The notes beneath the pieces are model-generated. The model searched no databases. It was given only the letters and a program-made list of their open reading frames with translations, and was not told the DNA's origin. A DNA stretch of 64,000 bases. It comes from a virus (taxonomy: Duplodnaviria > Caudoviricetes). Shown in pieces: positions 37,009-37,252 of this stretch. Position numbers and translations under genes: made by a program. Location of the stretch: positions 1 to 64,000 of the IMG/VR virus record IMGVR_UViG_3300020308_000002. One strand, 5' to 3'. Numbering within the stretch: position 1 is the stretch's first letter; every line of letters begins with the position of its first letter.

Positions 37009-37104
37009 TTATACGTAAGCGATCTTTCTAACTGGCTTAACGTAACTCTTACCTCTGTAAGTAAGAACAACACTTTTTGTCTTGTTAGATGTAGCTGTAG
37101 CCAT
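37009..37104 (-). CDS. 31-aa DUF4278-like peptide (MATATSNKTKSVVLTYRGKSYVKPVRKIAYV)
   Basis: LTYRGxSY signature; GGAG RBS at 37112-37115; not in the ORF track. Confidence 0.75.
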   Translation of the reverse strand: MATATSNKTKSVVLTYRGKSYVKPVRKIAYV

Positions 37105-37119
37105 GGTTTTTCTCCATAA

Positions 37120-37172
37120 CAACACCCCCGTCATATGGTGCTGGTGATTGCGACCAAATGGTCTGACGATTT
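37120..37172 (-). ncRNA. Candidate glutamine-II (Downstream-peptide) riboswitch
   Basis: CGUCA-GACC-auuu-GGUC-GCAAUCACCAGCACCAUA-UGACG-GGGGUG: P1, P2, CGCA junction and pseudoknot partner, directly upstream of a DUF4278-like ORF. Confidence 0.65.
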
Positions 37173-37178
37173 GATTTC

Positions 37179-37205
37179 ATCATAACATTCGGTATAAACA
37201 GATAC
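37179..37205 (-). promoter_or_regulatory. Extended -10 promoter (TG-n-TATGAT) with NtcA box (GTA-N8-TAC) 7 nt upstream
   Basis: GTATAAACAGATAC at 37192-37205; TATGAT at 37184-37179; predicted TSS near 37172 at the aptamer 5' end. Confidence 0.65.
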
Positions 37206-37252
37206 TGTATCACCTTGATACGGTTTTCATGATCTTAATATTTTGATGTGAA

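Follow-up and report, generated by a model that had tools for sequence, protein, structure and literature searches.

What is encoded on the minus strand at positions 37009-37221 of the phage record IMGVR_UViG_3300020308_000002, in a gap between genes that all run the other way? The stretch analyzed here (64,000 nucleotides, hereafter the window) is part of this 74.6-kb IMG/VR virus record, which belongs to a phage of marine cyanobacteria. A sequence-only reading of the window had proposed that the interval holds a nitrogen-sensing unit, made up of an NtcA box, a promoter, a leader resembling a glutamine riboswitch and a DUF4278-like peptide. Every sequence feature described there was found in its place when the minus strand was read. 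Our analysis makes it probable (roughly 75%) that the interval is a stand-alone, moron-like transcription unit copying a host picocyanobacterial module that consists of an NtcA-type operator, a glutamine-II riboswitch and an IF17-like DUF4278 micropeptide. The features of the unit are collected in Table 1.

The layout of the leader and the roles of its nucleotides were compared with the natural glutamine-II sequence and the crystal description of Huang et al. 2019 (PMC6698751). On the minus strand, the 5' strand of the pseudoknot (PK) helix is followed by the P1 hairpin, a G-C linker, a spacer, the 5' strand of P2, A-U, the 3' strand of the PK helix, G-G and the 3' strand of P2. This is the glutamine-II topology, in which the 3' PK strand lies in the loop of P2. 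The PK helix is formed by CGUCA (37164-37168) and UGACG (37129-37133), the P1 hairpin (37152-37163, GACC-AUUU-GGUC) by GACC (37160-37163) and GGUC (37152-37155), and P2 by CAGCACC (37137-37143) and GGUGUUG (37120-37126). All three pairings had been recognized in the sequence-only reading under other names: P1 there stands for the PK helix and P2 for P1, and what it took for a possible pseudoknot (AGCACC/GGUGUU) is contained in P2. The CGCA junction occupies 37149-37152, with the G-C linker at 37150-37151; the equivalent of A33 lies at 37136 and those of G41 and G42 at 37127-37128. The pocket nucleotides C1, G2, U3, G18, C19, A33, A38, C39, G40, G41 and G42 are all kept, and they are invariant in 17 relatives, an invariance partly imposed by the search pattern. 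Thus, the leader shares with the published structure (PMC6698751) the P1-PK-P2 pseudoknot topology, the pocket nucleotides, the long-range C:G pair and a Shine-Dalgarno (SD) sequence a few nucleotides 3' of P2. It departs from that structure in the two variable PK pairs, in the loop purine, in the length of P1 (only 4 bp) and in P2, an uninterrupted helix of 7 bp lacking the bulge; the copy also falls below the Rfam reporting level. In the subclass to which it belongs the PK helix reads CGUCR/YGACG with A as loop purine, whereas the canonical form is CGUUC/GAACG with G.

Relatives of the unit were collected by pattern scans of IMG/VR and of metagenomes, which enlarged the set to 38 instances representing 23 distinct cassettes in five subtypes (A-E). 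The pattern fixed the PK and P1 helices and left P2 free. In 17 distinct leaders the pairing is complete (289 of 289 cells, 100%), against 31-56% for slid controls, and six pairs show compensatory double changes, five of them among the seven pairs of P2. RNAalifold recovered P1 and P2 independently. When searched with RF01704 (gathering score 33), several homologous leaders scored in their own right: L018 with 34.1 bits, L011 with 30.0, L015 and L016 with 27.1, and L012 and L013 with 25.1. A covariance model (R1) built from subtypes B, D and E only matched the window copy with 64.7 bits (E 2.5e-17), and no other match was obtained anywhere in the phage record, window included. The aptamer lies in the 5' untranslated region of a short open reading frame (ORF) with a YRG motif, as do the canonical phage copies. 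Topology, covariation, the RF01704 matches of the homologues and the R1 match together argue that, as judged from sequence, the leader represents a divergent subclass of the glutamine-II (Downstream-peptide, RF01704) aptamers, one to which the Rfam model is partly blind. The suggestion of a glutamine-riboswitch-like leader is hence borne out at the level of the family. The glutamine-I model RF01739 found no match in the whole phage genome.

The ORF behind the leader is conserved as a coding sequence. Among the relatives there are 23 distinct versions of 30-35 codons each, in which the frame is conserved and the codons vary. In an alignment of 15 peptides L, Y, R and G are invariant, within a core of the form L-x-YRG-x-x-[YF]; the conserved arginine is encoded by AGA, CGC or CGT and the leucine by five different codons. 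This variation of codons at invariant residues indicates selection at the protein level. A profile of the family, run against 5.8 billion proteins, gave 302 matches at E<=1 (best E 2.5e-7), and PF14105 (DUF4278) was present in nearly all of the 120 matches listed out of the 302, proteins of Prochlorococcus marinus included. Alignment of the phage-peptide alignment with a host alignment by hhalign yielded a probability of 94.6% (E 6.4e-8 over 14 columns). Both the window peptide and a 33-aa DUF4278 protein of Prochlorococcus marinus (P0114) contain TLTYRGKSY. The host DUF4278 proteins retrieved carry two or three L-x-YRG-x-x-Y repeats, while the phage peptides have one. On sequence grounds, the 31-aa ORF is a real, conserved single-repeat YRG peptide related to DUF4278 at the profile level, as had been anticipated.

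Upstream of the aptamer, a promoter block is conserved as well. The extended -10 element TGTTATGAT of the window has the form TGnTAnnnT, which subtypes A-D all show 19-21 nt ahead of aptamer C1; in subtype E, TACAAT occupies the same place. All subtypes thus have the -10 at 10-12 nt upstream of C1, a position that predicts a transcription start site (TSS) 3-5 nt before the aptamer. The NtcA-like box GTA-N8-TAC, in the window GTATCTGTTTATAC, is situated 7 nt upstream of the -10 in subtypes A-C (at -37/-39 from C1). In subtype D and in L029 it is 10 nt closer and overlaps the -10. Relative to the predicted TSS the box therefore covers the core promoter in four of the five subtypes, the layout of an NtcA-repressed promoter; in gif promoters, NtcA represses from sites with their centres at -30.5, -7.5 and -28.5. 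Palindrome 1, the second element, is conserved in subtypes A-C; subtype D keeps its right half and reads GTT-N8-TAC. It is the only such site in the window, where the extended form of the NtcA-like box, GTATC-N4-KATAC, is also unique. An operator used throughout the phage genome was considered and rejected, the palindromes occurring at the cassette only. On the plus strand, a promoter-like site (37215-37244; TTGATA, 15-18 nt, TAATAT/TATTTT) has its -35 in common with palindrome 1 and faces the next plus-strand gene, whose likely start is ATG 37334 behind AGGAGA; the palindromes may therefore occupy a divergent control region in the subtype of the window.

How would these parts work together? 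GGAG is conserved in all relatives, and its context 3' of P2, UAU(A/C)(U)GGAG, is common to the window cassette and the canonical phage cassettes, from which the two expression platforms are probably homologous by sequence. There is no terminator between aptamer and ORF, so that control should be translational. CCAUA at 37134-37138 is complementary to UAUGG at 37114-37118, which overlaps the SD; this pairing is present in subtypes A and C, occurs with a bulge in E, and is reduced to CCA/UGG (3 bp) in B and D. In the proposed mechanism, host RNA polymerase would start at about 37172 from the extended -10 promoter. At low nitrogen, NtcA bound to 2-oxoglutarate, or another factor recognizing the palindromes, would sit on the core promoter and repress it. 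Once the leader is transcribed, glutamine would stabilize the PK helix and turn translation of the peptide on, as for the MED4 aptamer (Klähn 2018, PMC6212724); from this analogy we infer a glutamine-dependent translational switch in the window leader. Repression at low nitrogen combined with a glutamine-on leader would restrict the peptide, a putative mimic of the host Downstream-peptide proteins, to the nitrogen-replete infected cell. It is a further and rather doubtful step to regard the glutamine-II subclass, the NtcA operator and the promoter as one mobile 215-bp cassette among unrelated cyanophages, a two-input gate (low 2-oxoglutarate, high glutamine) that would release a host-mimicking one-repeat YRG micropeptide only under nitrogen-replete conditions and thereby redirect host nitrogen metabolism for the phage.

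Several results weigh against the proposed unit. No glutamine family of Rfam matched the window copy, either at the gathering score (33 for RF01704) or at E<=10, whether the window, 351 nt, 76 nt or the genome was searched, and the single-sequence fold was no better than shuffles (z = -0.83). Invariance of PK and P1 among the relatives is partly by construction, because the search pattern fixed both. Likewise, Pfam found no match to the window peptide at E<=10 (PF14105 cut-off 25.3 bits). Had the window copies of leader and peptide been judged alone, as the sequence-only reading had suggested, both identifications would have failed; the relatives reversed this outcome, through the covariation, the RF01704 and R1 scores and the DUF4278 profile comparisons given above. 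Weak DUF4278 matches in Pfam were obtained for nine of nine relatives (13.7-19.0 bits). Concerning the operator, most subtype E cassettes have a degenerate box (it is intact in one of seven variants), and palindrome 1 departs from the NtcA consensus by its N9 spacing. In the window GTA-N8-TAC shows no enrichment, its 14 occurrences comparing with an expectation of 9.8 and being reached in 11 of 100 shuffles, and upstream of canonical phage cassettes it was found in 5 of 110, about chance. Finally, nearest-neighbour modelling gave equal SD accessibility in the modelled free and bound states, with the PK sequestered in the latter.

Part of this evidence would also fit a leader that has kept the fold and lost glutamine sensing, serving another ligand or acting as a constitutive structure. 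The low or absent Rfam scores point in that direction, and so do three coordinated changes next to the pocket, C4:G37 for U4:A37, R5:Y36 for C5:G36 and A35 for G35, the last being a nucleotide that makes a base triple with U4:A37 (PMC6698751); all 17 aligned distinct leaders differ from the canonical consensus at exactly these positions. However, the four paired nucleotides are those of U4:A37 and C5:G36, named by Huang 2019 (PMC6698751) as the only PK positions not highly conserved, and every nucleotide that contacts glutamine in that structure (C1, G2, G18, C19, C39, G40 and G41) is kept. As the class of the downstream gene is also identical to that of canonical aptamers, we consider a loss of sensing very unlikely and retain the glutamine-II assignment. 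The identity of the operator is far less settled. The palindromes could be bound by another host or phage regulator recognizing GTATC/GATAC half-sites, or could merely be conserved promoter DNA, so that no gating by 2-oxoglutarate would take place. Conservation in subtypes A-C does extend past GTA/TAC to GTATC/GATAC, the two sites are 15.5 bp apart and hence on opposite helix faces, and the spacing of palindrome 1, the lack of enrichment and the absence of the box in most of subtype E and in canonical phage cassettes are all compatible with this explanation. Subtype D, on the other hand, keeps only GTA...TAC (GTAGCGATTGTTAC) in its shifted register, which is precisely what the NtcA consensus requires. 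The extended motif occurs once in the phage, which makes a dedicated phage repressor unlikely; furthermore, the cassette moves between unrelated flanks together with its operator, and in the counterpart gene of the host an NtcA site covers the TSS. A regulator other than NtcA, or none, is accordingly a serious contender that we would put somewhat short of even odds, and the N9 palindrome with the extended GTATC/GATAC identity may leave room for such a factor. NtcA repression of the window promoter stays plausible by analogy, since the box lies over the core promoter in most subtypes as it does at the MED4 IF17-like gene, with a chance approaching one in two.

The role of the product can be weighed in a similar way. 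The locus might work in cis: its nitrogen-gated transcript could serve as antisense RNA, or its transcription as a roadblock, to the early/replication operon on the plus strand, or the YRG ORF could be a regulatory leader peptide; in any of these cases the peptide would be no trans effector. In the window, as in many relatives, the cassette is directed against both of its neighbours, Weinberg 2010 hinted at a regulatory role for the conserved peptide itself, and in phage P-SSP7 a 17-aa ORF lies directly upstream of the capsid gene. Yet orientation with respect to the neighbours varies among the relatives, a terminator follows the ORF directly in subtype D and in P-SSP7, and the conservation of amino acids under codon change far exceeds the needs of a mere translated spacer. 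A purely cis-acting locus thus appears highly improbable. Somewhat better placed, and still unlikely, is the idea that the peptide is an inactivating factor of glutamine synthetase (GS) like IF7 or IF17. IF17 carries DUF4278, and the combination of an NtcA box with a glutamine riboswitch copies the regulatory logic of gifB. According to reviews, however, it is the IF7-like C-terminal region that carries the GS-inactivating activity, and the DUF4278 part of IF17 is dispensable for it; picocyanobacterial IF17-like proteins lack the GS-binding C-terminus. The 31-aa peptide, one YRG unit with a 10-residue tail in which Pfam finds no other family, has no IF7-like GS-binding C-terminal part either, and for this reason tuning of GS by the peptide, as envisaged by the sequence-only reading, is speculation. 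GS is one candidate target of Downstream-peptide proteins and not the favoured one. We therefore keep to a host-like DUF4278 micropeptide as the product of the unit.

The claim that no phage circuit of this kind had been characterized proved too strong, for the module is the known one of the host, canonical phage copies are common, P-SSP7 among them, and phage glnA-type switches have been predicted. Klähn et al. 2018 (PMC6212724) described the Yfr6/IF17-like locus of Prochlorococcus MED4, where a type 2 glutamine riboswitch precedes a 33-codon DUF4278 ORF. The IF17-like gene of MED4, WP_071812974, has a perfect NtcA site over its TSS, and the type 2 aptamer raises expression after ammonium addition, acting as an ON switch (Klähn 2018, PMC6212724). 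The window unit resembles this locus in having GTA-N8-TAC over the core promoter, a glutamine-II aptamer just past the TSS and a short basic YRG peptide, all in the same order. In contrast to the MED4 locus, it is phage-borne, has a PK of CGUCA/UGACG with A35 in place of canonical CGUUC/GAACG with G35, escapes Rfam detection, carries a second, N9 palindrome upstream, and encodes one YRG repeat after a 13-residue N-terminal stretch where host proteins have two or three repeats.

Canonical glutamine-II cassettes were found in T7-like cyanopodoviruses, including P-SSP7, P-GSP1, P-SSP3, NATL1A-7, 9515-10a and others, in all of which they are unannotated in GenBank. They share with the window unit the succession of a phage glutamine-II aptamer, UAU(A)UGGAG and a single-YRG micropeptide; unlike the window unit, which has its own promoter and operator and opposes its neighbours, their aptamers are canonical and lie within an operon. 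In P-SSP7 (AY939843.2:20522-20650; L166 603-730) a canonical glutamine-II aptamer (48.1 bits), the 17-aa YRG ORF and then a GC hairpin follow one another between psbA/gp028 and the capsid gene, at a place where the GenBank record annotates nothing. No separate -10/operator block precedes this cassette, in distinction from that of the window. Matches to the P-SSP7 stretch were obtained in about a dozen further cultured cyanopodoviruses. The canonical pattern was present on at least 120 IMG/VR contigs (L046-L165), and a single-YRG ORF of 12-51 aa came next in 85 of 110 distinct canonical cases among the matches listed. These peptides of 12-51 aa are most often 17 aa long, different from the 31 aa of the window. 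Among the matches listed, the canonical downstream ORFs form a class of 12-22 aa and one of 29-51 aa with a conserved ELQARIKEQ-like N-terminus, each with a single YRG. Glutamine-I (glnA-type, RF01739) riboswitches have been predicted in T4-like cyanophages, the OM43 phage Melnitz and the pelagiphage Mosig (PMC9004378, PMC9602691, PMC9964418); they too are phage-encoded glutamine-sensing RNAs, but belong to a three-way-junction aptamer class and precede other genes (tmRNA and others). Among the papers that could be searched, none was found to describe phage glutamine-II/YRG cassettes.

An NtcA box, a type 2 riboswitch and a DUF4278 ORF are thus already known from the literature as a host module, and canonical phage copies of it are common. 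Particular to the window cassette are the CGUCR/YGACG subclass, a promoter of its own with conserved palindromic operators, and a stand-alone, often opposed placement in differing flanks. Several phage families keep minimal single-repeat YRG peptides behind glutamine riboswitches, and the version in the window adds a host-type promoter and operator. The retention of single-repeat versions behind such switches makes a case for the YRG unit as the active part and for an advantage to phages in expressing it in step with the nitrogen status of the host. These cassettes bear on the function of DUF4278 Downstream-peptide proteins in marine picocyanobacteria; being compact (49-nt aptamer, 31-aa peptide), they offer convenient test material for both riboswitch and peptide. 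Since the RF01704 model misses a real subclass, surveys of phages and metagenomes will undercount such switches.

Table 1. Elements of the minus-strand cassette, in window coordinates
Feature	Position	Strand	Remarks
Palindrome 1, GTATCA-N3-TGATAC (= GTA-N9-TAC)	37207-37221	-	exactly 22 nt upstream of the -10 hexamer
NtcA-like box GTA-N8-TAC (GTATCTGTTTATAC)	37192-37205	-	centred at about -26.5 from the predicted TSS
Predicted extended -10 element TGTTATGAT (TGn-TAnnnT)	37179-37187	-	7 nt between TAC of the box and TATGAT
Predicted TSS	37170-37174 (about 37172)	-	3-5 nt upstream of aptamer C1; placed from the -10
Glutamine-II-type aptamer, 49 nt	37120-37168	-	by crystal description, covariation and model R1
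UAUGGAG, with SD GGAG at 37112-37115 preceded by UAU	37112-37118	-	7 nt before AUG
ORF of the 31-aa basic peptide	37009-37104	-	ATG 37102-37104, stop 37009-37011; single L-T-YRG-K-S-Y unit at 37042-37065
Weak terminator-like hairpin over the stop codon	37006-37021	-	kept in L009, not in L001

The cassette lies inside a 330-bp gap between two plus-strand genes. Its neighbours form a phage early/replication module encoding a methyltransferase, a single-stranded DNA-binding protein (SSB), a PD-(D/E)XK exonuclease and a VapE-type primase. A high-light-inducible gene, hli (PF00504), is located nearby, and the closest match of the primase is in Synechococcus phage S-LBS1; these two observations indicate a marine cyanophage and, by extension, a host that possesses NtcA.

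The helices, the ORF and most of the promoter/operator block are conserved, with covariation, in 23 distinct relatives, so that the arrangement is not a product of chance. A near-identical IMG/VR contig shows synonymous changes in the ORF core and diverges totally directly past the stop codon. The 3' boundary of the cassette is not uniform, as subtype D (L015 9171-9215, and L016) has a strong terminator, a GGAGGGC...CCCTCC hairpin followed by TTTT, in place of the weak hairpin of the window. The unit also occurs, with 89% and about 67% identity, on two contigs of a marine metagenome-assembled genome (MAG) that bears an archaeal label; the less similar copy retains a 31-codon ORF and has compensatory changes in the helices. 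These contigs, PAZU01 C39 and C40 (L006, L009-L011; the MAG is titled Methanobacteriota archaeon SP67), are relatives of the window cyanophage, sharing with it dps at 89% identity and replication-module DNA at 89% and about 67%; phage contigs were probably mis-binned here into an archaeal MAG.

The start of the ORF was also considered. An upstream start at 37134, which would give 41 aa, was rejected, as its AUG lies inside the 3' strand of PK, is not preceded by an SD and reads ACG in most relatives; an overlapping 42-aa ORF (37085-37213) was rejected because it is not conserved. Scans of the 31-aa and 41-aa ORFs against Pfam and PHROG gave no match. A phmmer search of 1.84 billion representatives with the 31-aa peptide returned no more than a 57-aa call, self-like and frame-fused, and a repeat protein unrelated to it, and the 41-aa ORF, in a word-indexed search, matched just two near-identical proteins. 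For the CGUCR subclass, tblastn and blastn against GenBank phages returned nothing, the ESM Atlas yielded no usable match, and a strict scan of IMG/VR for the peptide motif gave mostly chance matches within large ORFs. The public gene call P0001, of 57 aa on a 956-bp contig, joins the overlapping 42-aa frame to the YRG peptide. This fusion implies one A fewer in the AAAAA run between SD and AUG, either a sequencing slip or a natural frameshift variant.

Two minor observations concern individual relatives. Loci L019 and L028, both from contig Ga0208158_1000028 (113.5 kb), hold identical subtype C cassettes and represent either two copies or one place. In L015, the minus-strand interval 5292-5403 ends in a terminator-like hairpin and matches the enterobacterial rnk leader below threshold (36.4 bits; gathering score 50), probably by chance.

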